Source: an uncultured Alphaproteobacteria bacterium
Lineage (GTDB): Bacteria > Pseudomonadota > Alphaproteobacteria > RF32 > CAG-239
Assembly: GCA_944391375.1 (NCBI GenBank)
Contig: CALXTJ010000001.1
Span: 49,729-113,728 of the forward strand
Length of the DNA: 64,000 nucleotides
Direction: 5' to 3'
Each line of letters starts with the position of its first letter. The stretch's first letter is position 1. A program made the position numbers and the translations under genes. Of the stretch, positions 1 through 40,870 are shown piece after piece. The notes under the pieces were generated by a model. That model did no database searches, had not been told where the DNA came from, and saw nothing but the letters and a program-made list of their open reading frames with translations.

Positions 1-2
1 AC

Positions 3-287
3 GGGGCAGGTTTTGAAGGGGATGATGCCGCAAGCATTTCCGTAGAGTTGGGAACGGATGCCGATGTCGGCAATCTTGAAAGTTTATGGAGCGAATTATC
101 GCGTAAGTATTCTTCGGTTCTTGGCTCCTACCAGCCGTTTTATTCGGTAGATGCACCGGCTGACGGTCAGGGTAAAGAATTGTTCCATTTAAGAATAGGA
201 CCGGTATCAACCATTGATGTAGGTGATAATATCTGCAGTCAGTTGGGCCGTAACGGCGTATTCTGCAGCGTAGTAAGGGTTCAGTAA
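3..287 (+). CDS. 3' end of a CDS truncated at the window start; the C-terminus looks like a SPOR (peptidoglycan-binding) domain
   Basis: The reading frame is open from position 3 to the TAA at 285-287. The C-terminal sequence LFHLRIGPVSTIDVGDNICSQLGRNGVFCSVVR fits the SPOR consensus (yRVqvGpf...A..l...L...G..afvv). Confidence 0.45.
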   Translation, partial: GAGFEGDDAASISVELGTDADVGNLESLWSELSRKYSSVLGSYQPFYSVDAPADGQGKELFHLRIGPVSTIDVGDNICSQLGRNGVFCSVVRVQ

Positions 288-300
288 GAATTAAGGTAAA

Positions 301-3300
301 ATGAGTAAAGAAGTTCTGACACATTCCGAAAGATATGTACGCAAGACCAATAGAATAATTTTAATCGTTGGTATAACCTCATTTGTGGTATTTCTATTCG
401 GCCTGTTATTGTTATTTTCCAGCGGCACGACGGAGAATGAATATCAGGAGCCGGTATTTACCGAAGATGACAGTGCCATCAATTTCGGAGAGGATCGCAA
501 TCCGTTATTGGACACAATAGAATTTACGGATGTGGAGGAAAAAGATTTACCGATAACCACTACGCCCAATCCTATAAGTATGGGCCAGGTTGTTTTGGGT
601 ACCGATGCTAAAAATGTTTTAACTATAGGCACCAACGGAACAACACCGATAAGAGTTGTTTCGGTCAAATTGGCTGAGCCGCCGTTTGAAGGTTTTACCT
701 TTAGTGACGGCTGTACAAGTGCGGAATTACGAGGCAATCAGACCTGTAATGTAACCATGAACTGGGTTCCGGTAACAGCCGGTAATGTACAAAACAATTT
801 TATTGTTTCGTGGCATGAGGCTAATGTCAGTGCTCAAAATGCCAAAGCCCAGAAAATTCCGGTTGAAGGTAAAGCAGTTACCAAAGAGGAATGCAGCTCA
901 TGCAGTACGGTAACGGGTATTCCGGATGCGGTTCAGGTTATCAAAGATGAAAACGGCAATATCATCGGGTACATAACATCCGACGGTAAAGCCGTTGATT
1001 TAAATGGCAATGAAATCGGTGTCGTACAAGGAGATGTTGTCGTTGATGAAAACGGTAATGTTATAGGTAGGATTAGTGCCAATAATGACAATGTAAGAGT
1101 AGCCTACGGACCGGATGGAAAAGTAATCGGTTATGTAGATAAAGACGGCTATGTCAGAGATGAAAACGGCAATATTATCGGTCGGGTCAATGATGAGGGC
1201 TTAATCGTTGATGAAAACGGCAATATTATCGGAGTGGCCGGTAACGAAAAATTAGTTTATGATGAAAACGGTAATGTGATAGGTTACGCCACAACAGACG
1301 GCAGGGTCATAGATTTTAACGGTCGGCAAATAGGCCGGGTAATGCCGGATGGCACGGTAGTAGATGCCAACGGAGCAGTAATCGGCAAAGTCGTTGAATC
1401 GGGATATGTTTACGATGAAAACGGTAATGTCATCGGCCGTGTTTTGGAGGACGGAACGGTAGTTGATAAGAACGGTAATGTCATCGGCAGGCTGAACGAA
1501 AACGGTGAAGTGGTAGACATGAACGGCAATGTTATAGGCTATGTCAGTAAGCCCGGAAGGACGGTTACGGATGAAGACGGCAATGTTGTGGGAGTGGTCA
1601 TGCCCGATAATTCCATTGTAGATGAGAATGGTAATATTGTAGGGTATGTGGATGAAAACGGGGAGGCTTATGCTTTAAGCGGTGAAAAAATCGGCAAGAT
1701 GGGACCGTCACGAAGGTTATATTATGATGAAAACGGTAATGCGATAGGGTATATAGATGAAAACGGCAACATTGTTGATTTTAGCGGCAATACCATAGGT
1801 AAAATACTGGACGACGGCACGGTTTTAGATGCTCAAGGCAATGTTATCGGTAAGATGTTGGAAGACGGAACCATTGTTGATAAGGACGGTAATGTATTGG
1901 GCAAAGCCGGCGACTATGTTAATTTAGCGGTAGATGAAAACGGCAATGTCATAGGTTACATAAACAAAAACGGCGAGGTGATAGACAGAAACGGTAATGT
2001 CATCGGTCGTGTTGATAAAGACGGCAACATTATCAGTAATAAAGCAGTTCGGATAGGGGCGGTAGTACGGACGGAGTTAATACCGGTTACGCCTTCGGGT
2101 ACGGTACTTGGCAAAGTATCTTCCACGGGAGAAGTTGTTAATGAAAAGGGCCAGAGTTTGGGCCGTATTTTACCCAACGGTTTGGTAAAAGAAGCCAACG
2201 GCTCCAAGTTTATAGCCAAAGGAGTTAAGGGCGGACTGGTTGTGGGCTGGGGCTGTTCTCAGGTAGGAACGCTCGGAGAGGACGGAATTGTTCGTAAAAA
2301 CGGCCAAGACATGCCTTATAAAATTACTCCCGACGGAGGAATTTATGATGATAAGGGCATGTATCTGGGCGAAGTTGTAAAAACCGGAAAAGTTTTTGAT
2401 AATCAATGTAACTATTTGGGCACGGCCAATGAACGCGGCATAGTCCAAACCGACAACAAAAAATATGTCGGATGTGTAAATCCGGACGGAAAAGTATTAA
2501 ATGAAAACGGCGATATTATAGGTAAAGTGGCCGAATATAAGTTTGCGGTTAATGAAAAAGGGGATTATGTTGGTTATTTAAATGTTAATGGACAAGTATC
2601 CGGAAGTTCTTTATTGCCGGTAGGTTGTATGAATACGGACGGGGAAATATTCAACTCGGAAGGGGAATATATAGGCCGGCAGGTTGATAAATTTTACATT
2701 TTCAGCTTAGACGGTAAATTTATGGATACCGTATCCCGAGACGGAAAAATTGATATCAAAGGCACCCCCGGAGCCAAGCTGTTTTTGCAAAAATATATAG
2801 CAGACGGCAATAACAAAATCATAGGCGTAGCTTATCCGGAAAGGAACAGAATAATCAATGCCGACGGCAAAATAATAGGCCAGTTGTTCGCAGATGGTAA
2901 TATTTATGATGCCCAAGGAATGGTTGTAGACAGGATTTATGGTGAAGGATTAAGTTTTTATGGTGGGCGAGCCGGAAAAATTTTACCTTACGGAAAAGTT
3001 GTCAACACTAAAGGCCAAGAGGTAGGGTTTGTAAATCCTGACGGAAGAGTTCTCAGTCGTTTCGGTGAATATTTCGGAAATATTGACACTAAGGGAAGAT
3101 GGTTTAATCTTAAAGGAGAATACTCCGGAGGGGTGGTCCATACGGGGGCCGGTATCGGTTATGACGGTTCTTACTTAGGTTACGCTTCACATTCGGGAGC
3201 CATAATCGGTTCCGGAGGAAAGATAAACGGTTACGGCAACGGTGCGGGTTTAATTTTAGATGCCAACGGAAAAGTTTTGGGCGATATAGTTGCGTCCGGA

Positions 3301-3921
3301 GCAGTAGCGGATTTATTTGGAAAATACAGCGGTTATACAGATGTTAAAGGTAATGTGTATGACTTAAGTAATAAATTTGTTACGGCGGTATTACCCGGAG
3401 GCTCAACCGATAAAGGATTGAGTATGTTAAGAAGAGGTATTGTCATTAACTTTGGCGGCAATGTTATAGGAGCGGTATATCCTGATGGATCGGTTATCAA
3501 TACCCAAAATGTAATTATCGGCAAGGTTTATTCCGACGGCAAAGTTGTCAATGAAAAAGGTGAGCTGTTAGGTGAAGTTGCCGAAGGCGATATAGTAATA
3601 GACAATGCCGACAAAGTAATTGGTTATGTAGCTTTTGACGGCAGTATCCGCGGTCAAGATAACGGCATTATCGGAAGATTATTATCGGGAGGTTTGGCGG
3701 TAGATAATCAAAATAATATTTTAGGTAAAGCCTATCGTATCGGGGCTTCGGTAGTATCCAATGACGGAGCTTATATCGGGTATCTTTCATCAGACGGCAA
3801 GGTTATCGGCAATAACGGAGAAAATGTCGGTTATTTAAAAAACAACGGTTCGTTTGTTGATTTAGATAAAAAAGTTGCGGGATATGCTTTGCAGGAAGTG
3901 GCACAAAATCGGAGGAATTAA
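301..3921 (+). CDS. 1206-aa bitopic membrane protein with an N-terminal TM anchor, an Ig-like segment, and about 55 degenerate 17-aa DENGNVIGxVxxDGxV repeats
   Basis: The ORF has a Shine-Dalgarno (AAGGTAAA) upstream of the ATG. Residues 1-20 are hydrophilic and followed by a TM segment (IILIVGITSFVVFLFGLLLLF). Most of the remainder is a repeat with a 51-nt period, and the DNA motif gatgaaaacggYaatRtYatMgg recurs at 946, 1045, 1159, 1210, 1261, 1414 and beyond. Confidence 0.85.
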   Translation: MSKEVLTHSERYVRKTNRIILIVGITSFVVFLFGLLLLFSSGTTENEYQEPVFTEDDSAINFGEDRNPLLDTIEFTDVEEKDLPITTTPNPISMGQVVLGTDAKNVLTIGTNGTTPIRVVSVKLAEPPFEGFTFSDGCTSAELRGNQTCNVTMNWVPVTAGNVQNNFIVSWHEANVSAQNAKAQKIPVEGKAVTKEECSSCSTVTGIPDAVQVIKDENGNIIGYITSDGKAVDLNGNEIGVVQGDVVVDENGNVIGRISANNDNVRVAYGPDGKVIGYVDKDGYVRDENGNIIGRVNDEGLIVDENGNIIGVAGNEKLVYDENGNVIGYATTDGRVIDFNGRQIGRVMPDGTVVDANGAVIGKVVESGYVYDENGNVIGRVLEDGTVVDKNGNVIGRLNENGEVVDMNGNVIGYVSKPGRTVTDEDGNVVGVVMPDNSIVDENGNIVGYVDENGEAYALSGEKIGKMGPSRRLYYDENGNAIGYIDENGNIVDFSGNTIGKILDDGTVLDAQGNVIGKMLEDGTIVDKDGNVLGKAGDYVNLAVDENGNVIGYINKNGEVIDRNGNVIGRVDKDGNIISNKAVRIGAVVRTELIPVTPSGTVLGKVSSTGEVVNEKGQSLGRILPNGLVKEANGSKFIAKGVKGGLVVGWGCSQVGTLGEDGIVRKNGQDMPYKITPDGGIYDDKGMYLGEVVKTGKVFDNQCNYLGTANERGIVQTDNKKYVGCVNPDGKVLNENGDIIGKVAEYKFAVNEKGDYVGYLNVNGQVSGSSLLPVGCMNTDGEIFNSEGEYIGRQVDKFYIFSLDGKFMDTVSRDGKIDIKGTPGAKLFLQKYIADGNNKIIGVAYPERNRIINADGKIIGQLFADGNIYDAQGMVVDRIYGEGLSFYGGRAGKILPYGKVVNTKGQEVGFVNPDGRVLSRFGEYFGNIDTKGRWFNLKGEYSGGVVHTGAGIGYDGSYLGYASHSGAIIGSGGKINGYGNGAGLILDANGKVLGDIVASGAVADLFGKYSGYTDVKGNVYDLSNKFVTAVLPGGSTDKGLSMLRRGIVINFGGNVIGAVYPDGSVINTQNVIIGKVYSDGKVVNEKGELLGEVAEGDIVIDNADKVIGYVAFDGSIRGQDNGIIGRLLSGGLAVDNQNNILGKAYRIGASVVSNDGAYIGYLSSDGKVIGNNGENVGYLKNNGSFVDLDKKVAGYALQEVAQNRRN
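940..2040 (+). repeat. Best-conserved block of in-frame tandem 51-nt (17-aa) coding repeats, VxDENGNVIGYVxxDGx
   Basis: Spacings between successive gatgaaaacgg motifs are 99, 114, 51, 51 and 153 nt. More degenerate copies continue to about 3850 and recur across 4020-6900 in the next gene. Confidence 0.85.
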
Positions 3922-3922
3922 A

Positions 3923-6900
3923 GTGTTTGATAAGTCGGTAAAAAAAATAAAAGCACTGGCGGCGGTTATTGCAATCATGTTAATAACGGTCAGTCCGGCG
4001 TTTTCACAAGAAATTACGGCCATCAATTTTAACGGCGATTTAATCGGAAAAGTAATCCCCGACGGAACGGTAGTAAGTTTTGATAACGAAATTATCGGCA
4101 ACATAACGGCCGACAGCTTTATTGTCAACGGCAAGGGAGAGTTGATAGGCGGTATAGTTCCGCAAGGAGTGGCCATAGGCAATGACAATAAATTATTGGG
4201 CAGAGTAAGCAACGACGGTACGGTTCGTCTGCCTTCGGGTAAGATAGTCGGTAAAGTTTTGCCGACATCATTGGTGGTAGATGATGCGTACAACATTTTA
4301 GGTTCGGTTTTATATCCGGGCTTGGTTTATGATGATGAAGGAAAAACGGTCGGACGCTTAACCGGCGACGGTTTATACATTAGTCTTGAAAGTCAAAACA
4401 TAGGTTTTGTTTCGGCCACCGGCCATGCGTATCGTAATACCGGTAAAGGATTTATTTTAGACGGTAAGTTAATATCTTCCAAAATGGTAGTTTCGGCAGA
4501 AGGAAAATTTATCGGCAGCATTACTGCCGGAGGTGTAGTTACCGATTTTTCTTCAAATCCGCTCGGCCAAGTTCATGCTAACGGTTATGTATATGATAAA
4601 AACAATCAAGTTATTGGTAAGACGATATCTAAGGGGTACGCTTTTGACAATTACGGTCAGTATTTAGGTTTGGTAACTTATAACGGTGAGGTTTTAAGCC
4701 AAGGAGATATTAAAGGTCGGCTTCGTGCGGACGGAAAGATTATCAACAACGAGGCACAGGTAATAGGTTTTGCCATAGATATTTCGGCAACAGCTTCGGA
4801 TTTTAACGGCAAATATTTAGGAAGAGTAATTCCCGGAGGTCAGGTTGTTTACTCCGGAGAAAGCGTTGGAACGGTAGGTGCCGGAGGCTACATTTGGAAT
4901 AAAGACGGAGCAGTTATAGGTCGGATTATAAAACCCGGTCCGGTATTTGACTATTTAGGAGAGTTAAAAGGTCAAACTGCTTATAACGGTACGGTAGTAT
5001 CATTGCTTGGAGCACCGATAGGTTATGCCAAAGGCAAGATTGCCTATGATAATATAGGTCGTATATTAGGTTCGGCAATGGACAGTGTACTGGTTTATGA
5101 TAATGCGGACAGATTGTTGGGTTTAAGCGGTATAGGTTCGGAAATAAAGGCCAACAATCAAATATTCAAGGTTTCGCCTTTTGGATATGTTTATTCTGCG
5201 GACAATTTACTGGCCGGCCATACGGTAGATATTGATGCGGTATATGATGAGGCGGGTCGTCCGCTGGCTTATATAGGAATAAGCGGAGAGTTACAAAATA
5301 TTCCGGCGGAGAAAAACTATCAAATTACACAGTTCGGCTTGGTTACGGATAGCACCAACCGTTTACAGGGAGCTCCGATTAAGCCGTATTTTGCGGTAGG
5401 TGAAGACGGTCGTGAATTAGGGGTTCCGGCTCAAAACAATTTGTTGCTTGATAAACAACGCAAGGTAAGCGGAAAAATAGTTCCCGAGTATAAGGTTACG
5501 GCAGATACAGAAAACGGAAACAACAATCAAATGCCGATAATCGGCGGAGTTGGCCGTTTCAATTTAGCTTTAGGTATCGGAGGGGATACTTTGGGCTATG
5601 TAGATTTAAGCGGTAAAGTTCGTGATTATTCCGGTAATGTTATAGGACAGGCCTTAGGCGGTGAGACTATAGGAGATGTGAAAAAATCGGTTATCGGTAA
5701 GGTAATGGATTTGCAAGGAGTGGTAAATGACCAATGTTCTTTTGTAGGTATTGTCGGCCAAAAGGGAGAAGTTCGCAACAGCCGAGATGTTATTTTAGGC
5801 AAGATACTAAACAACAATCAGGTTATTTCGGAAGTTGGGAATGTGGTTGGTTTTGGTGTACCGATGGGTTTGGTAACTGATTTTACCGGTAACAGTATCG
5901 GCCATGTGAATGCGTTAGGGCGAGTAATCAATTATAATCGCGAAGACTTGGGTTGTATCCGCCATGATGGCCGTTTGTATGATAAAGACGGAAAATATTT
6001 AGCTCGCAGGGTAGTTACATCACCGATAATGAATTTTGAAAATCAGATTATCGGCCGCAGCAATCTTAACGGCAGAATTATAGATGAAAAGAGTGCGGAT
6101 ATAGGCTATATTACGCCTGATGGAAGTGCAGTATCTTCACAAGGCACTATTTTAGGTACGACATTTAATTACAAAGTGGCATTCAGTGAAGATAACAGCT
6201 TTTTGGGACGAGTTTTGGAAAACGGCACGGTGGTAAGCGATAAAGATGATGTTTTAGGTAAGGTATTATTTGACGGAACCGTAGTAAGTGAAGACAAACC
6301 GATAGGATATGCGTTATACGATTTTTACATATATGATGGAGCCGGCAAAGCCATAGGTTATTTATCGGGAAGCGGGGAAGTGCTTAATTTTGCAGGCAAT
6401 AAATTAGGCCGAGCCGATAAGGGATTTTTAGTGGATGCGGAAAAGGATATATTAAGAGGCCGAGGCCGTCGGGATTACTTTATTCGTGATGACGAAAATA
6501 AAGTAATAGGAGAGTTATCATTAAACGGCGAAGTTATCGGATTAAACGGTAAGACGGTTGGTAAATTGGGCAGTAACGGTGAAATCCTAAGCGATTCCGG
6601 AGAAGTTATCGGCAAAGCCCGCGAGTTACAATATTACACCATAGAAAAGCCCGAGCCGGTTAAGCCGGCAGATTGGGCAACAACCCAAAGAGGCAAGAGC
6701 GATAACATCCAAATGGAAGCCGTTCCGGTAGCGGAAGAAACCGAAGAAAGTAAGTACGGATTAAAGACGGTAGGTATAGCATTAACCCCCGACGGTAACT
6801 ATTTGGGAGATATTTTAGTCAATAATGATGTTATAGATAAGTTAGGTAATTTAATAGGCAAAAAGATGCCTGACGGCTTGATAGTAGACAATCAGGGAGG

Positions 6901-8158
6901 CTTAATCGGTATAGAAGAGGCTAAAGGGGTACAAGGCGGTCAGATGTTTATACCGGCCGGAACATTTGGGTCCGGCGGAGCATACGGCACGGGCAATAAT
7001 CCGGCTAATTTAGGTCCCGGCGGAGGTTTTGGTCCGGGAGAAAGATATGATCCTGTAAGATCAAGAGCATTGGCGATGGCACAGAATGCCAGAAGAGAAG
7101 AGATAGTTGTCGGCAAAATATCCAGCAACGAGGATCCGGAAAGTTTTGACGGCAAGCAGGCGTATTGGAAGGGAGTTCCGCGGCAAATATCCAGTTGGCG
7201 AGTTGATATGAGCGAGATGATATTGGCAGACAAGCCGATACCGGCGGTTTTGGCCCGAACGATTATGTCCAGCAACGGAGCTGATAATGTACCGGTAACG
7301 GCAATAGTAGAGCGAAATGTATATGCAGAAACCGGCCGCAACATAGTAATACCGGCAGGTAGCAGAGTTATGGGAACATCTTCGGGAGGAGCAGCCGGCG
7401 GAAGCGGAGCGGTAAGAGTTTCCATTACCTGGACGCGTCTTATTCGCCCGGATGGTTCGGCTTTTGAGTTTTCATCGGCCCAAACCGGAGATGCACAAGG
7501 TCGTGGCGGAGCGTTAGGATACATAGATGAGCAGTTGGTAAAAAAATATACCTTGCCGATGATTACCAACTTATTGAGCAGTGCGGTAGCTTATGTTGCG
7601 GCCAGCGGAGAAACAACTACGACAGCGGATGGAGGAACGGTAGAGAGTGCTCGTCAGGAAGCCTCGCAGGATGCCCGGGAGAACTTTTTGGATAATATGG
7701 ATACCATGTTCAACCAAATTTTGGCTGATAAAACGGATATTGCGGCAGTTACCTATGTTCCGGCCGGCACCCGCTTGATTATTTATCCTAAGGAAGACTT
7801 ATGGATAAGAACCAGAGAGCGTACGGAGGAAGAATCTTTAATGGCCAGCAACAAGCCTACGGTATTCTTAGACGATCGTGATCCGACCGGGGAACTTGAA
7901 AGATCCTCAGGCGGTAATGCCGGAGGCAATAGCAGTAGCGGAACGGGTACGGGAAGCGGCACCAGCGGAGTTGTGTATGTAGATAACAGCAATGCCGAGG
8001 TGCAAGGTACCCCCTTAATTGATGAAACAGATACCGGGGGCAAAAACAAAAAACAAACTCGTCCGACAGGTATACCTCCGGTAACTTCAACCGGAGCCAC
8101 ACCTCCGCCTCCGTCATCAACGGCGGGAGTAAATAATACTTCGGCCCAGCTGTTCTAG
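3923..8158 (+). CDS. virB10: Giant VirB10/TrbI-family protein of about 1411 aa: TM anchor, a periplasmic repeat region of about 1000 aa, a Gly/Pro linker, a VirB10 C-terminal domain, and a Gly/Ser/Thr/Pro tail
   Basis: The VirB10/TrbI signature lies at about 7190-7800: IPAVLARTIMSSNGADNVPVTAIVERNVYAETGRNIVIPAGSRVMGT...VRVSITWTRLIRPDGSAFEFSSAQTGDAQGRGGALGYIDEQ. The N-terminal region carries a degenerate xxDxxGxxIGxVxxxGxV repeat like the upstream gene. I prefer the GTG start at 3923, which has a GGAGG box 7 nt upstream, over the ATG at 3875, which overlaps the upstream gene by 47 nt. Confidence 0.85.
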   Translation: MFDKSVKKIKALAAVIAIMLITVSPAFSQEITAINFNGDLIGKVIPDGTVVSFDNEIIGNITADSFIVNGKGELIGGIVPQGVAIGNDNKLLGRVSNDGTVRLPSGKIVGKVLPTSLVVDDAYNILGSVLYPGLVYDDEGKTVGRLTGDGLYISLESQNIGFVSATGHAYRNTGKGFILDGKLISSKMVVSAEGKFIGSITAGGVVTDFSSNPLGQVHANGYVYDKNNQVIGKTISKGYAFDNYGQYLGLVTYNGEVLSQGDIKGRLRADGKIINNEAQVIGFAIDISATASDFNGKYLGRVIPGGQVVYSGESVGTVGAGGYIWNKDGAVIGRIIKPGPVFDYLGELKGQTAYNGTVVSLLGAPIGYAKGKIAYDNIGRILGSAMDSVLVYDNADRLLGLSGIGSEIKANNQIFKVSPFGYVYSADNLLAGHTVDIDAVYDEAGRPLAYIGISGELQNIPAEKNYQITQFGLVTDSTNRLQGAPIKPYFAVGEDGRELGVPAQNNLLLDKQRKVSGKIVPEYKVTADTENGNNNQMPIIGGVGRFNLALGIGGDTLGYVDLSGKVRDYSGNVIGQALGGETIGDVKKSVIGKVMDLQGVVNDQCSFVGIVGQKGEVRNSRDVILGKILNNNQVISEVGNVVGFGVPMGLVTDFTGNSIGHVNALGRVINYNREDLGCIRHDGRLYDKDGKYLARRVVTSPIMNFENQIIGRSNLNGRIIDEKSADIGYITPDGSAVSSQGTILGTTFNYKVAFSEDNSFLGRVLENGTVVSDKDDVLGKVLFDGTVVSEDKPIGYALYDFYIYDGAGKAIGYLSGSGEVLNFAGNKLGRADKGFLVDAEKDILRGRGRRDYFIRDDENKVIGELSLNGEVIGLNGKTVGKLGSNGEILSDSGEVIGKARELQYYTIEKPEPVKPADWATTQRGKSDNIQMEAVPVAEETEESKYGLKTVGIALTPDGNYLGDILVNNDVIDKLGNLIGKKMPDGLIVDNQGGLIGIEEAKGVQGGQMFIPAGTFGSGGAYGTGNNPANLGPGGGFGPGERYDPVRSRALAMAQNARREEIVVGKISSNEDPESFDGKQAYWKGVPRQISSWRVDMSEMILADKPIPAVLARTIMSSNGADNVPVTAIVERNVYAETGRNIVIPAGSRVMGTSSGGAAGGSGAVRVSITWTRLIRPDGSAFEFSSAQTGDAQGRGGALGYIDEQLVKKYTLPMITNLLSSAVAYVAASGETTTTADGGTVESARQEASQDARENFLDNMDTMFNQILADKTDIAAVTYVPAGTRLIIYPKEDLWIRTRERTEEESLMASNKPTVFLDDRDPTGELERSSGGNAGGNSSSGTGTGSGTSGVVYVDNSNAEVQGTPLIDETDTGGKNKKQTRPTGIPPVTSTGATPPPPSSTAGVNNTSAQLF

Positions 8159-18146: not shown

Positions 18147-19322
18147 TTAAGCAGCCTTAGCCGAATATTTGGCGGCGAACTCGTTCATTTTTTCAATGAT
18201 ATAGGACTGTTCGTCTTTTTCCAAATAGGGGTGCATCGGAATACTTAAAACGGTTTTGGAAAGTTTTTCACAAACCGGAACCGAGCGGGTGTTCCATTTA
18301 GCATAAGCGGTTTGAGTATTAACCGGACGCGGATAGTAAGCACCGCAAGGAATGCCGTTTTCCTTTAAGAAGGCCATCAATTCATCGCGATGTTCACAGT
18401 TGATGGTATATAAAGCATAAGCCGAACGGCAATTATCAAGGATTCGCTGTTTACCGAAATATTCGCTCAATTCGTTATCATAGCGTTTGGCAATTGTGTA
18501 ACGATCTTCCAATTCTTTATCAAATACGGTTAGTTTTTGTAATAAAACGGCGGCTTGGAAGGTATTCATACGGCCCGTCATGCCTAAGCGAACATTATCA
18601 TAGTGATCTTCGGGGCTCATGCCGTGAACGCGGCAAGATTTAACCAACTCGTTTTCGTCATTGTTGTTGGTAAATACGGCACCGCCGTCGCCGTAACCGG
18701 CCAAGGGCTTGGTCGGATAGAAGGAAGTGGCAGTCATATCGGCAATGGAGCCGGCTCTTTTGCCATGGTAAACCGAACCGTAAGATTGGCAAGAGTCAGA
18801 CAAAACTTTCATGCCGTTTTCATGGGCAATTTTAATAATCTCGTCCAATTCGCAAGGCGAGCCGAAAATATCAACCGGAATAACGGCTTTAAGGTGCAAT
18901 TTACCTTCTTTTTTAACTTCGGCGATAGCCCGTTTCAAATCTTCGGGATCCATATTGTAGGTATCGGGTTTGGAATCAATAAAAATCGGGGTAGCACCCA
19001 ATAAAACCGGAGCTTCGGCGGAGGAAACGAAAGTAAAAGACGAAACAAAAACGGCATCGCCGGGTTTAACATCCCAAGCCATCAAAGCCAAGGTTAAAGC
19101 ATCGGTACCTGAACCGCAGGTTGAGCAATATTTGGTGCCGGAATATTCGGCCAATTTTTGATCCAATTCTCTGGTTTCGGGGCCTTGACAGTAAGCACCG
19201 TGGTCTAAAATTTTTTCAAAAGCGGCCATAAATTTTTCACGGCCGATAACCTTTTGCGAAGTAGCACAATCAAACAGGTTAATGTTTTTATTAGGTTTGT
19301 TTGTCATCAATTTAATCCTCAT
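18147..19322 (-). CDS. DegT/DnrJ/EryC1/StrS-family PLP-dependent sugar aminotransferase
   Basis: A conserved Lys lies in TSFYPTKPLAGYGDGG, and the N-terminal region (…FDCATSQKVIGREKFMAAFEKILDHGAYCQGPE) matches the family. The true start may be the internal Met at about 19307. Confidence 0.75.
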   Translation of the reverse strand: MRIKLMTNKPNKNINLFDCATSQKVIGREKFMAAFEKILDHGAYCQGPETRELDQKLAEYSGTKYCSTCGSGTDALTLALMAWDVKPGDAVFVSSFTFVSSAEAPVLLGATPIFIDSKPDTYNMDPEDLKRAIAEVKKEGKLHLKAVIPVDIFGSPCELDEIIKIAHENGMKVLSDSCQSYGSVYHGKRAGSIADMTATSFYPTKPLAGYGDGGAVFTNNNDENELVKSCRVHGMSPEDHYDNVRLGMTGRMNTFQAAVLLQKLTVFDKELEDRYTIAKRYDNELSEYFGKQRILDNCRSAYALYTINCEHRDELMAFLKENGIPCGAYYPRPVNTQTAYAKWNTRSVPVCEKLSKTVLSIPMHPYLEKDEQSYIIEKMNEFAAKYSAKAA

Positions 19323-19497
19323 AAAAGTTCAAACTGGGAGCGATATTAAGCCAAAGAGGGAAGCGATGCAACACACAAAAAATTTCTTGATTGTAACAAA
19401 AATATCCAAAACCGTACCTTAAAAGAGAATATTTATGTTGAATAAAAATATAAATTGTTTAATTATAAGGACGACAAGTATTTTACAAGGTGAGTAT

Positions 19498-20283
19498 ATG
19501 ATAAAAATTAAATTGATGTTGGCATCGTTTTTGTTGTTGGCCGCATGTGCGACCAATCCGGACGGAAGTAAGTTGGATACAAGCAACGAAACGACGCTTG
19601 AAGCTTACAATCGAGCAATGTTTAATTTCAACTATCAACTGGATAAAAAAGTTATATATCCGGTGGCTAAGGGTTATAAAAAAGTAACCAATCAGTTTGT
19701 AAGGGACAGAGTAACATCGCTATTTAACAATTTAGATGAACCGTCTTATTTTATTAACGACTTATTGCAAGGCGAAATTAAAGACAGCGGAATTTCATTG
19801 GGCAGATTTTTAATAAATTCCACTTTAGGCTTGTTTGGAACCTTTGATGTCGCTTCAGGTTGGGGTTTGGAAAGGAAAAAGAATTCATTTGATGAAACTT
19901 TAGCTAAGTATTGCGTACCGGATGGCCCGTTTATCATGATGCCGGTATTAGGCCCTTCCACGCCGAGGTCTTTGGTAGGCTTGGGCGGAGAAGCCTACAC
20001 CAGCCCGCTGTTCTGGGCCTTTATAGATACCGACGATGCGTGGGTTGATATTGGAGTAGCCGGAGCTACGGCGTTAAAATACATTAACTTAAGAGCCGAA
20101 AATGAGTTTTTGCTGCAAAGCTTGGAAGATGGTTCGGTAGATTACTACATGACCATAAAATCATCATGGCTGCAAAATCGGCAAAAGTATGAAAGTTTGT
20201 GCACAAAAGCATCTGATGAAGGTGCAAGTCCGAGCTATGATTTTGACTTTGGTTATGATGAATTTGATGAAGAGTTTGAATAA
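19498..20283 (+). CDS. mlaA: MlaA/VacJ outer-membrane lipoprotein
   Basis: The lipobox is LLAAC|ATN, the rest has VacJ-family similarity, and the C-terminal tail is acidic. I prefer the ATG at 19498 over the track start at 19435. Confidence 0.8.
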   Translation: MIKIKLMLASFLLLAACATNPDGSKLDTSNETTLEAYNRAMFNFNYQLDKKVIYPVAKGYKKVTNQFVRDRVTSLFNNLDEPSYFINDLLQGEIKDSGISLGRFLINSTLGLFGTFDVASGWGLERKKNSFDETLAKYCVPDGPFIMMPVLGPSTPRSLVGLGGEAYTSPLFWAFIDTDDAWVDIGVAGATALKYINLRAENEFLLQSLEDGSVDYYMTIKSSWLQNRQKYESLCTKASDEGASPSYDFDFGYDEFDEEFE

Positions 20284-20296
20284 AAGGAGAGTAACA

Positions 20297-20899
20297 ATGA
20301 AAAAATTTTTAGCAACATTTTTGGGAGTGCTTTTTGTGTGTCATGCAGCATCATCTGCGGAAATTGACGGTCAAAAGGCCGAAAAGTTTATAAAAAATTT
20401 GACGGATACCGGTATAGAAGAAATAATCAATTCGGATGTTTCGGAAGAGGAAAAAGACCAAAGATTTGAAAAGTTATTTAATGAAAACTTGGACTTGGAT
20501 TTTATCGGTCGTTTTGTACTGGGCAGATACTGGAGAACGGCAACGGCTGAGGAAAGGAAAGAATTTATCAATGTTTATCGGGAACTTAATATCAAGACAT
20601 GGTCAAGTCGTTTTGATGAATTTAAGGGTAAAAGCTTTATATTCAAAGGCACATCACCGTCCAGCTCGGCCGGACAAATTTTTGTAAACACGGAAGTTCC
20701 GATGGATCAGGGAGCTCCGGCCAAAGTAGTGTGGCGTGTAAAGGAGAATAAGGGGCAATTTAAGGTAGTTGACATCATTATTGAAAATGTAAGTTTGGCC
20801 ATTACGGCTCGTAACGAATATACGGCATTTATTAAAAATTCACCGGAAGGTGTGCAAGGACTGATAAACAATCTAAAAAGCAAATTGCAAAATCAATAA
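20297..20899 (+). CDS. mlaC: MlaC/Ttg2D periplasmic phospholipid-binding protein
   Basis: A signal peptide (MKKFLATFLGVLFVCHAASSA) followed by a toluene-tolerance Ttg2D-like sequence. The ribosome-binding site AAGGAGA sits 7 nt upstream of the ATG at 20297. Confidence 0.75.
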   Translation: MKKFLATFLGVLFVCHAASSAEIDGQKAEKFIKNLTDTGIEEIINSDVSEEEKDQRFEKLFNENLDLDFIGRFVLGRYWRTATAEERKEFINVYRELNIKTWSSRFDEFKGKSFIFKGTSPSSSAGQIFVNTEVPMDQGAPAKVVWRVKENKGQFKVVDIIIENVSLAITARNEYTAFIKNSPEGVQGLINNLKSKLQNQ

Positions 20900-20926
20900 T
20901 TGCGTATAATAAAAGCAAGTAAGCAA

Positions 20927-20955
20927 TTGACAATTGCCAAGTTTTTGTGTAACAT
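20927..20955 (+). promoter_or_regulatory. Sigma70-like promoter upstream of the cysteine-rich gene
   Basis: TTGACA, then 17 nt, then TAACAT. A second -10-like TAGTAT follows, then a GGGGGCGG ribosome-binding site before the ATG at 20994. Confidence 0.4.
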
Positions 20956-20993
20956 GGTAGTATATGTAGGTATTATTTACATCGGGGGCGGAT

Positions 20994-21992
20994 ATGCTTA
21001 AGGTTAAGAACTTTTTTATAACACTTGCGGCAATAGTGCTGTTTAGCTCTGTTTCTGAGGCAAGGGTATGCTTTCTTGTCGGGAGTGATGATGAAGAAGG
21101 CTGTTTAACGGCTACCTATGAAATAGAGAGCCTTAAATGTAAGGGTTTTTCATTATGTGAAAGTCCAAGAAAGGGCAGCAGTGTTTGTATAGATGCCGGT
21201 AATAACTATTACAAGCCCGAAGATTGTTGTTCCAATCCGGAATTTTATGAGCCGTGCAACGGAGATGGAATGGTCTGCGAAGGAACTGTATGTAAGAGCT
21301 CCGGGGAAAACGGCGAAGATGTAATATGGTGTGAAATCGGTCAGTGCAAGTGCGATCCTTCTTACTCTGAAACATGTGATCCGGCCCAAGGACTTGAGGG
21401 CGTGGGAGAACCGTGCGGAAATAAGTATAAGAGTTGTCGTTGCGGATCTTCATATTATCAATGTGATAGTTCGGCAACCGGTTCCGGCAGCACTTGTCAG
21501 GACGACAGAGGAACATTATACAGTTCCTGTACCTGTCCGACAGCCGGTGAAAACGGATGGGTAACAGATCCGGATGAGTGTTGCAGCGGTTATTCAAATA
21601 CCTGTACAAACCAACCCGGAGGTCAAGTTGTATACAAGTGTCGTACCACAAATTTACCGGAGTGCGTTTGCGGATATGTTTTCAGCCCCAGTAAGCAGGC
21701 ATGTGTAACCGGTTGTACGGATGATGGGTATGCGTATAAAGGTGAGTTACCGGCCAATGCTACTTGTACGGGTTCGGTTGCGGCACTTAGCGAAGGTTTC
21801 GTATGTGCAGAAAGTTGCCAGTGTAATGATGGCTATTGGGATTTTGTTGAAACATGTACAAAACAAAATGATAATGTTTGTGAAGTATTGGGCTATGTAG
21901 ATACCACTTGTGAAGGCGATTGGGTAGCCTGTCCTTACGATGTTTCAGCCAAAAAATGTTTGCATATCGGCAAAAACACCGGAGAAGGCTAA
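20994..21992 (+). CDS. Secreted cysteine-rich protein (332 aa, about 12% Cys) ending at an in-frame TAA
   Basis: A signal peptide (MLKVKNFFITLAAIVLFSSVSEA|R) is followed by dense C-x-C/CC patterning (…CCSNPEFYEPCNGDGMVCEGTVCKSS…). Confidence 0.7.
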   Translation: MLKVKNFFITLAAIVLFSSVSEARVCFLVGSDDEEGCLTATYEIESLKCKGFSLCESPRKGSSVCIDAGNNYYKPEDCCSNPEFYEPCNGDGMVCEGTVCKSSGENGEDVIWCEIGQCKCDPSYSETCDPAQGLEGVGEPCGNKYKSCRCGSSYYQCDSSATGSGSTCQDDRGTLYSSCTCPTAGENGWVTDPDECCSGYSNTCTNQPGGQVVYKCRTTNLPECVCGYVFSPSKQACVTGCTDDGYAYKGELPANATCTGSVAALSEGFVCAESCQCNDGYWDFVETCTKQNDNVCEVLGYVDTTCEGDWVACPYDVSAKKCLHIGKNTGEG

Positions 21993-22154
21993 GGCGGTGG
22001 AGGCGATTCTGCGGTTTGCCCGGAAGGTTATTCGGCAGATAAAACTCAAGTATCTGATTGTGGCGATTCCGGAGCCAAAGGTTGGCTGTTTGAGTCGCAA
22101 ACAGTTGGAGATACGCTTGTTTGCGGTGAGTGTTGGCAAAAAGCTTCAACATCT

Positions 22155-22565
22155 ATGTCTTGTTCTGATTACACTCCGGGAACATGTGGATACTGTTTTT
22201 GCATGGGTAAAGACTATTTATGTAATGGAACATGTTCCGATGTTGATCAAAAAGGTCCGGGAGGAGTTTCTATCTGTATCGCTTGTTCGCCGACAAGTGG
22301 AGGAAGTACTGTCGGTGGCGGTACGACCGGCGGCGGTATTACAACACCTCCTGTAAGCGGTGGCTCTACCCCTGTAGGTGGTGGCGGAAGTGCCAGTGCA
22401 TTGCAATGTAATCAACTGACAATGGATGAGTGTGAATATAAATTGTGTATTGATCCGAACTATTGTTCAAACAGTGCCGGTTCGGGAGGAATGGATCAGA
22501 GATGCTGTCAGACAGACAAGACTGAAGGATCAGCAACGGGAGGCGTGACCAAACCTACATTCTAA
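22155..22565 (+). CDS. Cysteine/glycine-rich ORF in the same frame as the upstream gene, probably its original C-terminal part
   Basis: The start at 22155 is in the same frame as 20994..21992. Reading past the TAA gives a continuous Cys-rich sequence (GEG*GGGGDSAVCPEGYSADKTQVSDCGDSGAKGW…). There is no signal peptide of its own. Confidence 0.4.
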   Translation: MSCSDYTPGTCGYCFCMGKDYLCNGTCSDVDQKGPGGVSICIACSPTSGGSTVGGGTTGGGITTPPVSGGSTPVGGGGSASALQCNQLTMDECEYKLCIDPNYCSNSAGSGGMDQRCCQTDKTEGSATGGVTKPTF

Positions 22566-22602
22566 GCTTTCACTTAATCCGCAAATTTAAGGAGCAGTCT
22601 TT

Positions 22603-22623
22603 GAAAAGGCTGATCCTTTTTTA
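22603..22623 (+). terminator. Rho-independent terminator after the Cys-rich locus
   Basis: AAAAGG-CTGAT-CCTTTTTT. Confidence 0.45.
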
Positions 22624-22780
22624 GTTGCTTTACAGAAAACCTCCGGTTTGGCAACGGATATCTATTATGAATTTTTATTATACTTGCATAATTTATTTAC
22701 TGATATCTAAAATTATCTTGAGTTGTTGCCGAAAATATGATATACATTAAACAAAAATTTCGGAGGGGTATTGATTTGCC

Positions 22781-23140
22781 ATGATTATCAATAGTAACGA
22801 TATATCACAAAGAAATATTTTAACTAATAAATGTTTTTATCAAACCACGGCTCAAATCATGAGGGATTTTGAGCAAAAGGGTTACGCCAATTCGGCTGAT
22901 GAAACCGCTAAGGTAATTGCGGCCTATCATAGCATCGCACAAAAAAAGAGCAAAAATCACTACAATAAAGACTATAATGAAGCCTTTGGAAAAATTGATA
23001 ATGCCATAAAAAGCATGGCAAATAAAGTGTTTTATACTTATGATAAAAAAAGTTATGATTATGCGTATCAATCTTTCCAGAATTTTGACTATATCAATGC
23101 CATAATCGGCCGCCAGCGGCTTAAAAAGAAAAATCCGTAA
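22781..23140 (+). CDS. Hypothetical protein (119 aa), an orphan ORF in an AT-rich spacer
   Basis: The ORF has a GGAGGGG box 9 nt upstream. I recognise no homologous family. Confidence 0.35.
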   Translation: MIINSNDISQRNILTNKCFYQTTAQIMRDFEQKGYANSADETAKVIAAYHSIAQKKSKNHYNKDYNEAFGKIDNAIKSMANKVFYTYDKKSYDYAYQSFQNFDYINAIIGRQRLKKKNP

Positions 23141-39595: not shown

Positions 39596-39989
39596 ATGGG
39601 TGGTCGGATAGCCGCGTTGCGAAAAGTAAGATTCGTTAATGAGGAAAGTCCGGGCTTCATGGAAACAGGATACCGGATAACATCCGGCCGGAGCGATCCG
39701 AGGGAAAGTGCCACAGAAAATTACCGCTTGGCTATATGCCAGGTAAGGTTGAAAAGGCGAGGTAAGAGCTCACCGCTAAAGTAGCAATATTTTAGGCAAG
39801 GTAAACCCTATCCGATGTAAGACCAAATGAGGAGTATCAGATTTATCTGACGGAGCGTTTCCACTCTGTCCAGAGGTAGGTCGCACGAGCAAACCGGCAA
39901 CGGTTTGACAAGATGAATGGCTATCGCGGCAAACTTTATATTTTATAAAGCAATTGTCAGTACAGAACCCGGCTTACAGACCACCAACT
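39596..39989 (+). ncRNA. rnpB: RNase P RNA (bacterial type A)
   Basis: The universal GAGGAAAGTCCGGGCT motif lies at 39641-39656, GGTAAGGTTGAAAAGGCGAGGTAAGAGCTCACCG follows, and the conserved 3' ACAGAACCCGGCTTACAG is present. P1 pairs 5' GGTGGTCGG with the 3' CAGACCACC. Confidence 0.9.
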
Positions 39990-40009
39990 TTTTTATTAAG
40001 GAGGGCATT

Positions 40010-40870
40010 TTGCAAACCACGATAAGGACGGAAATAAGCATAAAAGGCATAGGATTACATTCCGGTTGCGATTCGGTATTAAATATCAAACCGGCACCGG
40101 TTAATAGCGGCATAGTGTTCAAACGCATTGATATTGCCGATTCGCCGTTAATACCCGCCACTTATGATAATGTTGTTGATACCCGCAATTGTACTTGTTT
40201 GGGCAAAAACGGAGTGTTAGTAAGTACAATAGAGCATTTAATGGCGGCTTTGTCGTTAAGCGGTATTGATAATGCTTTGATAGAGTGCAATAATCAGGAA
40301 TTGCCGATATTGGACGGCAGCGGTAAAGTATTTTTTGAAATTTTGCAAAAGGCTTCCAAGGTAAATCAAGAGCTATCAAGGAAGTATCTAAAAGTATTAA
40401 AACCGGTTAAATTTACCGACGATAAAGGCAATTTTGTAGAAGTTGCTCCTAATGACGGTAAAAACATGTATGTTAAGTTTGATATTGAATTTCCATCTCA
40501 TATTGTCGGACATCAAACTTTTGACGGCAAGATTAGTCCGGAGATTTTTGCCTCCGAGATAGCTCCGAGCCGTACATTTTGTGAAAAATATCAGATAGAG
40601 TATTTGCAGTCTTTGGGGCTGATTAAGGGCGGCAGTTTGGAAAATGCCGTAGTTTTGGACGATGAGGACATTTTAAATCCGGAAGGGTTTAGGGTTAAAA
40701 ACGAGTGTGTTAATCATAAAGTGCTGGATTTGTTGGGTGACATGTTTACTTCCGGCTACCATATTTTGGCAAATATTACCGCTTATAAGAGCGGACACTT
40801 CCATAACAATGAGGTACTAAAACTTTTATTTGCCGATAAGGATAATTACAAAATTGTTGATAAGGAATAA
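40010..40870 (+). CDS. lpxC: UDP-3-O-acyl-N-acetylglucosamine deacetylase
   Basis: …IKGIGLHSGCDSVLNIKPAPVNSGIVFKR… I prefer the TTG start at 40010, which has an AAGGAGGG ribosome-binding site. The track ORF start at 39917 would run back into rnpB. Confidence 0.85.
   Translation: MQTTIRTEISIKGIGLHSGCDSVLNIKPAPVNSGIVFKRIDIADSPLIPATYDNVVDTRNCTCLGKNGVLVSTIEHLMAALSLSGIDNALIECNNQELPILDGSGKVFFEILQKASKVNQELSRKYLKVLKPVKFTDDKGNFVEVAPNDGKNMYVKFDIEFPSHIVGHQTFDGKISPEIFASEIAPSRTFCEKYQIEYLQSLGLIKGGSLENAVVLDDEDILNPEGFRVKNECVNHKVLDLLGDMFTSGYHILANITAYKSGHFHNNEVLKLLFADKDNYKIVDKE

Follow-up and report, generated by a model that had tools for sequence, protein, structure and literature searches.

The gene analyzed here lies at positions 20994–22565 of a 64,000-nt stretch of DNA from an uncultured alphaproteobacterium (the whole stretch is called the window below), and it encodes a predicted secreted, cysteine-rich protein whose reading frame is interrupted by one TAA codon. 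A reading made from the letters of the window without database searches (the sequence-only reading) had described a protein with about 12% Cys and a signal peptide, which is separated by a single in-frame TAA from a similarly Cys- and Gly-rich open reading frame (ORF) without a signal peptide, and this description was borne out. The first frame (ORF1) runs from ATG 20994 to TAA 21990–21992 and encodes 332 aa with 38 Cys, which corresponds to 11.4% Cys overall and 12.3% in the mature part. Its N-terminus, MLKVKNFFITLAAIVLFSSVSEA, followed by RV after the predicted cleavage site, reads as the n/h/c layout of a Sec signal peptide, and AlphaFold2 (AF2) predicted a helix at residues 3–17. The second frame (ORF2), which starts at ATG 22155 and encodes 136 aa, is in frame with ORF1 (both start coordinates are divisible by 3), has 10.3% Cys and 19.9% Gly, and begins with MSCSDYTPG without any hydrophobic segment. 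The translation of 20994–22565 in one frame gave 524 codons with one internal stop and a terminal TAA at 22563–22565. Across the internal stop it reads ...KKCLHIGKNTGEG-stop-GGGGDSAVCPEGYSADKTQVSDCGDSGAKGW..., and the residues that follow KNTGEG and the stop are GGGGDSAVCPEGY, identical to those quoted in the sequence-only reading. The 190 codons located after the stop contain 9.5% Cys and 19.5% Gly, and the remaining window ORFs of at least 200 aa all have at most 4% Cys. The stretch between the two ORFs is also coding-like, as had been proposed. At 95% nucleotide identity, codons 334–380 and 381–447 align with sequence that is coding in intact alleles from the same species, which argues that the continuity beyond the stop is not a chance open frame.

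Distribution of the stop allele among conspecific sequences

The fused sequence was used to search a collection of 5.8 billion proteins, and 14 homologues were obtained. At the stop site the closest of them (P0001, 710 aa, 96% identity) has an uninterrupted ...KNTGEGEGGEGDSAVCPEGY..., and the contig on which it lies (L001) shares 98.3% identity with window 18324–22142. Position 21990 is G in L001, L023, L024, and L025, which have 98–99% nucleotide identity across the locus, while it is T in all stop alleles; codon 333 is GAA (Glu) in the intact alleles and TAA in the window. A second change is located 10 nt downstream, where the A-to-G substitution at 22000 (E336G) always accompanies T21990. 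The conspecific intact alleles, which encode 449, 697, 710, and 711 aa, all read GEGEGGEGD at the place where the window has GEG-stop-GGGGD. The intact proteins run GEGEGGEGDSAVCPEGY... straight across the site, which in the window is flanked as ...GGAGAAGGC-TAA-GGCGGTGGA... The finding that codon 333 is GAA in conspecific intact alleles is in agreement with the nonsense mutation that the sequence-only reading had listed among its options, and it supports a truncation. The intact orthologue was expected in that reading to have about 520 aa. The conspecific intact alleles do not have this size but range from 449 to 711 aa, because the window also carries an in-frame deletion of ∼600 nt.

At least 12 contigs, derived from NCBI, ENA, and Logan, encode exactly the 332-aa product of ORF1 (P0015); the ENA and Logan contigs probably overlap in samples, and the number of independent samples with P0015 is about seven rather than 12. 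The contigs that carry the stop came from several assemblers (scaffold_, NODE_, k87-style, and Logan unitig), and over a length of 4779 nt one of them, L007 (run ERR4096494), shows 100% identity to the window. The stop is also carried by two other alleles of 332 aa (P0022 and P0024), and the fragments P0018, P0019, and P0027 likewise end with ...GEG. In a table of 43 variable sites in 15 sequences T21990 and G22000 were perfectly linked. This pair occurs on at least four flanking haplotypes, and the stop haplotype of L011 and L012 otherwise resembles L023 and L024, which carry the intact allele of 449 aa. Intact and stop alleles were also met as pairs within the same study (SRR7457741 and SRR7457757, BRZ_SG and BRZ_KT, ERR4096627 and ERR4096494, with the intact allele given first). 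The perfect linkage of T21990 to a second single-nucleotide polymorphism only 10 nt away fits a single origin of the stop, which would have been followed by recombination within the population. Because the stop is common in the species and has been recombined onto several backgrounds, it appears to be tolerated, that is, either neutral or favored. Exact-pattern scans of JGI metagenome contigs gave no matches to the stop site, in either allele, or to the window-specific tail, and this collection thus added neither an independent count of the alleles nor an intact allele of the window type. A phase-variable (contingency) gene was considered and rejected, as the stop is one G-to-T transversion in the non-repetitive sequence GAAGGC(G/T)AAGGC and is linked to the second polymorphism.

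Position of the stop relative to the conserved core

The alignment of 12–13 homologues defined a core of residues 24–322, which contains about 35 invariant Cys and extends from an invariant RVCFL to ...ACPYDxSAKKC. ORF1 of the window is 47–96% identical to the homologues over residues 1–322 and keeps all invariant Cys, G, W, and Y columns. C322 is the last invariant Cys, and the stop follows 10 residues further on, in a linker that shows no conservation across species in the alignment. When the intact P0001 protein was modeled with AF2, residues 324–339 received predicted local distance difference test (pLDDT) scores below 50, in comparison with ∼80–88 in the flanking core and ∼70–89 in the extension modules; in a further AF2 model core residues 50–220 have pLDDT of ∼88. 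These models place the stop in a predicted flexible linker at a domain boundary.

Natural ends of related proteins were found at the same place. Six homologues of 309–325 aa (including P0005, P0007, P0008, P0010, and P0012) end just past ...SAKKC, and the clean short members of the family range from 309 to 329 aa. In six related loci (L002, L016, and L018–L021) the stop at that point is followed by ∼150–200 nt of noncoding DNA and then by a conserved gene of 119 aa, while three other loci (L014, L015, and L017) encode long forms of 487–582 aa. A profile search of 1.84 billion representatives returned only about 25 clusters with the whole core, which have lengths of 309–1543 aa and E-values down to 1e-152. 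Because the short forms end at the core, while others reach 1543 aa, the architecture of the family is best described, from these comparisons, as a conserved core with an optional and highly variable extension. Since the stop is at the domain boundary, ORF1 has the extent of the natural short orthologues. Hence, the comparison supports truncation as a better description of the stop allele than pseudogenisation of the whole gene. With regard to the recent nonsense mutation, with pseudogenisation or truncation, that had been proposed earlier, the truncation was upheld, while a private recent mutation is not consistent with an allele that is common and present on several backgrounds, and the loss of the whole gene is the less apt description for a stop at a domain boundary.

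Sequence downstream from the stop

The extension of the intact P0001 protein consists of eight four-Cys modules (M1–M8) of 28–42 aa, most of which end with CxxC, and after these come a spacer rich in Gly and a tail that contains Cys. In the window M1 is kept up to ...VCG and is then joined in frame to the end of M7 (...EC-WQKA). The window is without the sequence 3821–4420 of L001 (∼600 nt), which covers the five CxxC modules M2–M6 together with parts of M1 and M7, while M8 and the spacer are 95% identical to the intact allele. The region 22334–22762 of the window, which holds the tail (T3) and the 3′ region, is unrelated to that of L001 (T1) or of L005 and L023 (T2), and in an index-limited protein search T3 was present in no other called protein. 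The tails are Cys-rich peptides of ∼60–75 aa without a family match.

Stop alleles were found with three downstream architectures. In the window type 190 codons are open after the stop, and in the L005 type 116 codons are open, in a layout identical to that of the intact 449-aa allele. The third type is represented by L004, which has 100% identity to the window over 4149 nt, as far as 22142, and from there on runs into tail T2 with the frame displaced by one base. The junction (L004 ∼4140–4160, corresponding to window 22128–22142) contains a 7-nt GCAAAAA microhomology, and the frame is shifted 50 codons past the stop. Four further contigs resemble L004, and the 7-nt overlap is too short for an assembly chimera. 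The fact that this frame-breaking rearrangement persists in several samples suggests that the region after the stop is not translated. The positions of all features of the locus are collected in Table 1.

Table 1. Sequence features of the Cys-rich gene and its flanks, in window coordinates
Feature	Position	Strand	Basis
Promoter-like site, TTGACA + 17-nt spacer + TAACAT	20927–20955	+	Consensus match only; such matches are no commoner than in shuffled sequence
G-rich Shine-Dalgarno-like stretch (GGGGGCGG), 2–9 nt upstream of ATG 20994	20984–20991	+	Sequence reading, putative function
Signal peptide, codons 1–23 (MLKVKNFFITLAAIVLFSSVSEA)	20994–21062	+	Conserved in all homologues; AF2 helix 3–17
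Cys-rich core, codons 24–322, RVCFL to ...ACPYDVSAKKC, ∼35 invariant Cys	21063–21959	+	Alignments, profile search, AF2
Inter-domain linker, codons 323–341 (LHIGKNTGEG-stop-GGGGDSAV), predicted disordered	21960–22016	+	pLDDT, non-conservation
Premature TAA, codon 333; G-to-T at 21990	21990–21992	+	Comparison with intact alleles
M1 remnant (first CxxC module of the extension), in-frame fusion to the end of M7	22017–22133	+	95–98% nucleotide identity to L001
Junction of the ∼600-nt in-frame deletion, at short in-phase repeat GT(A/G)AGTGT	22123–22142	+	Two BLAST segments overlap by 20 nt
ORF2 ATG, an internal codon; GCG (Ala) in intact alleles	22155–22157	+	Allele comparison
M8 remnant (last Cys module, CSDYTPGTCGYC...ICIAC)	22161–22286	+	95% nucleotide identity to L001 and L025
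Gly/Ser/Thr-rich spacer and strain-specific tail T3 (...QCNQLTMDECEYKLCIDPNYC...RCCQTD...KPTF), ending with TAA 22563–22565	22287–22565	+	
Terminator-like hairpin (22595–22612) and T-run; the sole one in the region, after the second stop	22595–22622	+	

At least three mutually unrelated 3′ ends were met in one species (window 22334–22762, L001 4632–5452, and L005 4158–4521), and the similarity returns abruptly at window 22763, just upstream of the 119-aa gene. From the alignments, the T1, T2, and T3 variants look like cassette-like replacements of the gene end. A polymorphic toxin with an immunity gene was considered and rejected, as the 119-aa gene is ∼99.5–99.8% identical whether T2 or T3 precedes it. 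A different kind of change was observed in the conspecific P0020 (655 aa), which at the protein level ends with ...CSPTIGGSTGRRRRWKHR; this looks like a frameshift within the GGY-rich tract that encodes GGSTVGGGTTGGGGGG, by which the C-terminus would be broken in the population by another route, independent of the stop.

Interpretation of the stop allele and alternative explanations

The explanation that we consider highly probable is that a modular secreted protein is cut down to its conserved core by a segregating nonsense allele, with the downstream sequence left as an untranslated remnant. As a part of this explanation, and with the same good confidence, the region 20994–22565 would be one gene and one transcription unit. 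The layout encoded by the gene would comprise a signal peptide, a conserved disulfide-rich core of ∼300 aa, a disordered linker, and a fast-evolving extension of four-Cys modules of 30–40 aa ending with CxxC, after which a spacer rich in Gly leads to a short tail with Cys. The G-to-T change in the linker would have turned the Glu codon 333 (GAA) into TAA, and the product would be a 332-aa precursor, ∼309 aa when mature, which consists of the core only. We infer that this precursor is exported, that it folds with its disulfides and still performs the role of the core, that the extension is dispensable, and that the TAA is not read through. The 573 nt downstream (21993–22565) would be a remnant of the extension that is no longer translated, shortened by the repeat-mediated in-frame deletion of ∼600 nt and probably moving towards the clean intergenic state seen in the short-form species. 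A comparable situation is that of Listeria monocytogenes inlA, whose premature-stop alleles lead to a truncated secreted internalin. In both cases a single-base stop that is common in nature cuts off the C-terminal portion of an exported modular protein, whose N-terminal portion stays intact. The window allele differs from inlA in that related species naturally lack the portion that is lost, a repeat extension.

Some of the data weigh against this explanation. The allele counts come in part from searches seeded with the stop allele, and they are not unbiased frequencies. The frame after the stop is still open in two of the three stop architectures, the window type and the L005 type; open frames need no selection, however, because deletions between in-phase repeats keep the frame, and the frame of the L005 type is that of the intact 449-aa allele. 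In codons 334–378 three synonymous substitutions were found versus one non-synonymous, which is compatible with a stop of recent date and with continued constraint alike, the numbers being small. No intact allele with the layout (523 aa) or the tail of the window type was present among the matches listed, which included 15 of the 21 members of one cluster.

Several other explanations were weighed against these data. A single-base difference from close relatives looks like a sequencing or assembly error, in which case the true codon would be GAA, and such an error had been among the options of the sequence-only reading. However, the T together with the linked G at 22000 recurs on 12 or more contigs, which stem from independent samples and from varied projects and assemblers, and three ORF1 protein alleles carry the stop, which leaves a vanishingly small chance for an error. 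It is also extremely unlikely that there are two separate genes, one for a secreted 332-aa protein and the other for an independent 136-aa protein. Both open frames start with ATG, and the 136-aa ORF was annotated by gene callers on one contig, though on this one only (P0029). On the other hand, ORF2 has 14 Cys without an export signal, the 20 nt upstream of its ATG contain no Shine-Dalgarno-like run, this ATG replaces an Ala codon of the intact alleles, and a scan of the region detected no promoter-like or terminator-like site between the ORFs. Two conserved genes with an independent start and signal peptide for the second, which had been named in the earlier reading as the sign of an ancestral stop, were looked for and were absent from the orthologous loci examined. 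A protein search with ORF2 matched ORF2 alone, and it also missed P0001, with which ORF2 shares ∼70 aa at ∼90% identity, hence this result is weak and index-limited. These observations suggest that ORF2 owes its start to an internal Met codon and does not represent a gene. Readthrough or suppression of the TAA at some level, which would produce short and long isoforms and had been proposed as well, would explain the long open frames after the stop in the window and L005 types and the mostly synonymous substitutions just past it. Both release factors recognize UAA, and in bacteria termination is efficient in the context UAA-G; the stop at codon 333 has this TAA-G context. In the window TAA ends 28 of the 42 ORFs of at least 200 aa, seven of those as TAA-G, and because TAA is a normal stop here the genetic code is taken as standard, and an altered code was ruled out. 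The window contains no tRNA gene and hence no suppressor tRNA, the rest of the genome being unseen. Moreover, the stop is not conserved in orthologues with coding sequence downstream, as the long forms, including many conspecific ones, have a sense codon and the short forms have no downstream coding, so that there is no conserved recoding site; nor is the downstream frame intact in all carriers of the stop, as it is shifted in the L004 type. Readthrough is accordingly regarded as very unlikely.

The two remaining explanations accept the nonsense mutation but give it a different meaning. The whole gene could be a dying pseudogene, with ORF1 as functionless as the remnant, and the recurrent damage to the C-terminus (the stop, the frameshift-looking P0020, the deletions in the 449- and 697-aa alleles, and the out-of-frame L004) and the weak constraint within the species (see below) are consistent with this. 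Nevertheless, ORF1 has lost neither its signal peptide nor any invariant residue of the core, all damage is located past codon 332, with core lesions in none of the 15 alleles examined, core-only genes are normal in at least six related lineages, and the stop allele is common and present on several backgrounds. A dying gene is thus improbable. There is a modest chance that the polymorphism is adaptive and maintained, with the loss of a hypervariable extension, for example one exposed to phage or antibodies, favored in some hosts and the alleles balanced. Such maintenance would agree with the frequency of the stop allele and its presence on at least four haplotype backgrounds, with the repeated loss or shortening of the extension between and within species, with the three unrelated C-terminal tails in one species, and with the gene being the fastest evolving of its neighborhood (48–55% versus 73–93% identity for neighbors). 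However, neutral loss of a dispensable module together with recombination gives an identical pattern, and the sites are too few for a test of selection.

Protein family, fold, and genomic neighborhood

Pfam and NCBIfam gave no match for ORF1, the post-stop region, ORF2, or the long homologues scanned, and in Pfam there was no match for the window protein, P0001, P0002, or P0013 even at E ≤10. The hits that did appear were below threshold and were taken as noise: P0009 showed DUF5448, the distant P0037 a 15-residue cEGF match, and some repeat proteins of very distant relationship Lcl_C. P0001 was also searched against PDB sequences, with no match. The two AF2 models, with mean pLDDT of 68 and 64, are all-beta stacks of hairpins, and their top Foldseek matches, which are non-significant, are Cys-rich domains of tumor necrosis factor (TNF) receptors, EGF-like domains, and NELL-type repeats. 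The family resembles these ladder-like disulfide-rich repeats of eukaryotes (TNFR, EGF-like, NELL-type) in its short all-beta hairpins and high Cys density. However, EGF-like, cystine-knot, and TNFR-type domains were not supported as assignments, as neither the sequence-profile match nor the structural match was significant, and the eukaryote-like Cys-knot flavor suggested by the sequence-only reading found no support in Pfam, PDB, or fold comparisons. The family is also similar to the variant-specific surface proteins of Giardia (Pfam PF03302) and to CysRRep in the CxxC modules, their variable copy number, the suggested extracellular location, and the tails with ...C...CC. It is different from the Giardia proteins in the lack of a Pfam match even at E ≤10. 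It is set apart from CysRRep by the published spacing of the latter, Cx6-9 Cx5-7 Cx8-11 Cx7-8 CC, which the tail of the window protein (C-8-C-4-C-5-C-12-CC) does not fit (bioRxiv 10.64898/2026.06.07.730663).

The gene belongs instead to an unannotated family of gut Alphaproteobacteria (P0001–P0014 and P0030–P0043), with which it shares the signal peptide, RVCFL, the ∼35 Cys, and the neighborhood. The window copy differs from the rest of the family by the nonsense codon in the linker, the loss of five extension modules, and its own tail, while the others are either long (449–1543 aa) or short. The literature searches found no description of such a Cys-rich secreted family. The family is previously undescribed, while the event itself is of a known kind. 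The RVCFL motif (21063–21077, codons 24–28), located right after the predicted cleavage site, is invariant in all homologues, and R(V/I)CFL or GVCFL is present in the distant relatives P0043, P0047, and P0053. It is non-canonical as a lipobox and may be a sorting or maturation motif. The core motifs GVGxxCxGKYxxCxC and LGYTxxxCxGDxxxCPxDxSxxxC recur in other unannotated secreted proteins. P0053 (658 aa) has nine tandem ...GVGxSCDGKYxSCxC repeats, P0081 and P0092 are further proteins in which core motifs occur, alone or repeated, and ...IGYTETxCEGDxxxCPFDISKLYC is an example from small proteins; some very distant matches carry Lcl_C domains. The recurrence of these motifs suggests an undescribed vocabulary of bacterial Cys-rich repeats.

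The related loci come from metagenome-assembled genomes titled 'uncultured Alphaproteobacteria', including a human-gut MGYG-HGUT genome. A scan of genome contigs returned relatives at ≤55% identity only, and the window's own species was not returned. The conserved neighborhood consists of Bax1-I, degT-like, mlaA, mlaC, the Cys-rich gene, the 119-aa gene, gpsA, and a gene for a flavodiiron-like protein, and the order mlaA, mlaC, Cys-rich gene, 119-aa gene, gpsA was met in both the window and the related loci. Because the Cys-rich gene adjoins mlaA and mlaC and its product has a signal peptide and a high Cys density, an envelope or extracellular location of the family is suggested. The 119-aa gene, which in the window is at 22781–23140 on the forward strand (MIINSNDISQRNILTNKCFYQTTAQIM...), always follows the Cys-rich gene and encodes a small protein that is strongly conserved, also between species whose Cys-rich cores are just ∼50% identical; its only Pfam match, RsgI_M, is sub-threshold (E 0.009).

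To compare rates of evolution, identities between species were 48–55% for the core, 59–84% for MlaA, 73–82% for MlaC, 87–93% for the 119-aa protein, and 83–92% for GpsA. Within the species the ratio of non-synonymous to synonymous polymorphism (pN/pS) of ORF1 was 0.26–0.49, as compared to 0–0.04 for mlaA and mlaC, in cleanly aligned pairs. The divergence, the pN/pS values, the three unrelated tails, and the several extension lengths in one species suggest that the protein is fast-evolving and probably exposed; relaxed constraint and diversifying selection are both compatible with these values. A more far-reaching proposal, to which we give only a modest chance, is that the stop represents one state of a presence/absence polymorphism of the hypervariable, exposed extension that selection maintains. 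In this proposal the undescribed family is specific to anaerobic gut Alphaproteobacteria, whose strains would shed or swap the extension to escape recognition by phage or host. The same tentative proposal holds that this would occur through nonsense mutation, repeat deletion, and replacement of the tail (at least three tails), with recombination spreading the resulting states.

Consequences for annotation and other features of the window

For annotation, 20994–22565 should be treated as one locus, consisting of a truncated and probably functional 332-aa coding sequence and a noncoding remnant, and neither the 136-aa ORF nor an out-of-frame 119-aa ORF (∼21997–22356) should be called a gene. The latter (21997–22356 on the forward strand, frame +2 relative to the gene) was called right after the stop in L007 and L009. 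It arises from the Gly/Cys-rich composition of this stretch and is distinct from the 119-aa gene at 22781. The locus gives a snapshot of domain loss in modular secreted proteins, from a nonsense codon in the linker through repeat deletion and frame decay to the clean short genes of sister species. Current understanding is not overturned by it, as it is ordinary gene decay caught part-way. The small, unannotated, and fast-evolving family located next to the mla genes could serve as a marker for strain typing or be a factor in interactions with host or phage.

Elsewhere in the window, a 1603-aa ORF on the reverse strand (26726–31540) has no Pfam match at E ≤0.01. The sole Rfam match in the window is a bacterial RNase P RNA of class A (39596–39992, forward strand, 269 bits), whose 3′ end is overlapped by ∼75 nt by the ORF at 39917–40870; the start of this ORF was probably called too far upstream. 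The region 1–8158 contains, on the forward strand, two very long ORFs of 1206 and 1427 aa and has a strong positive GC skew (∼0.26), and by their size and order these ORFs may be rpoB and rpoC.

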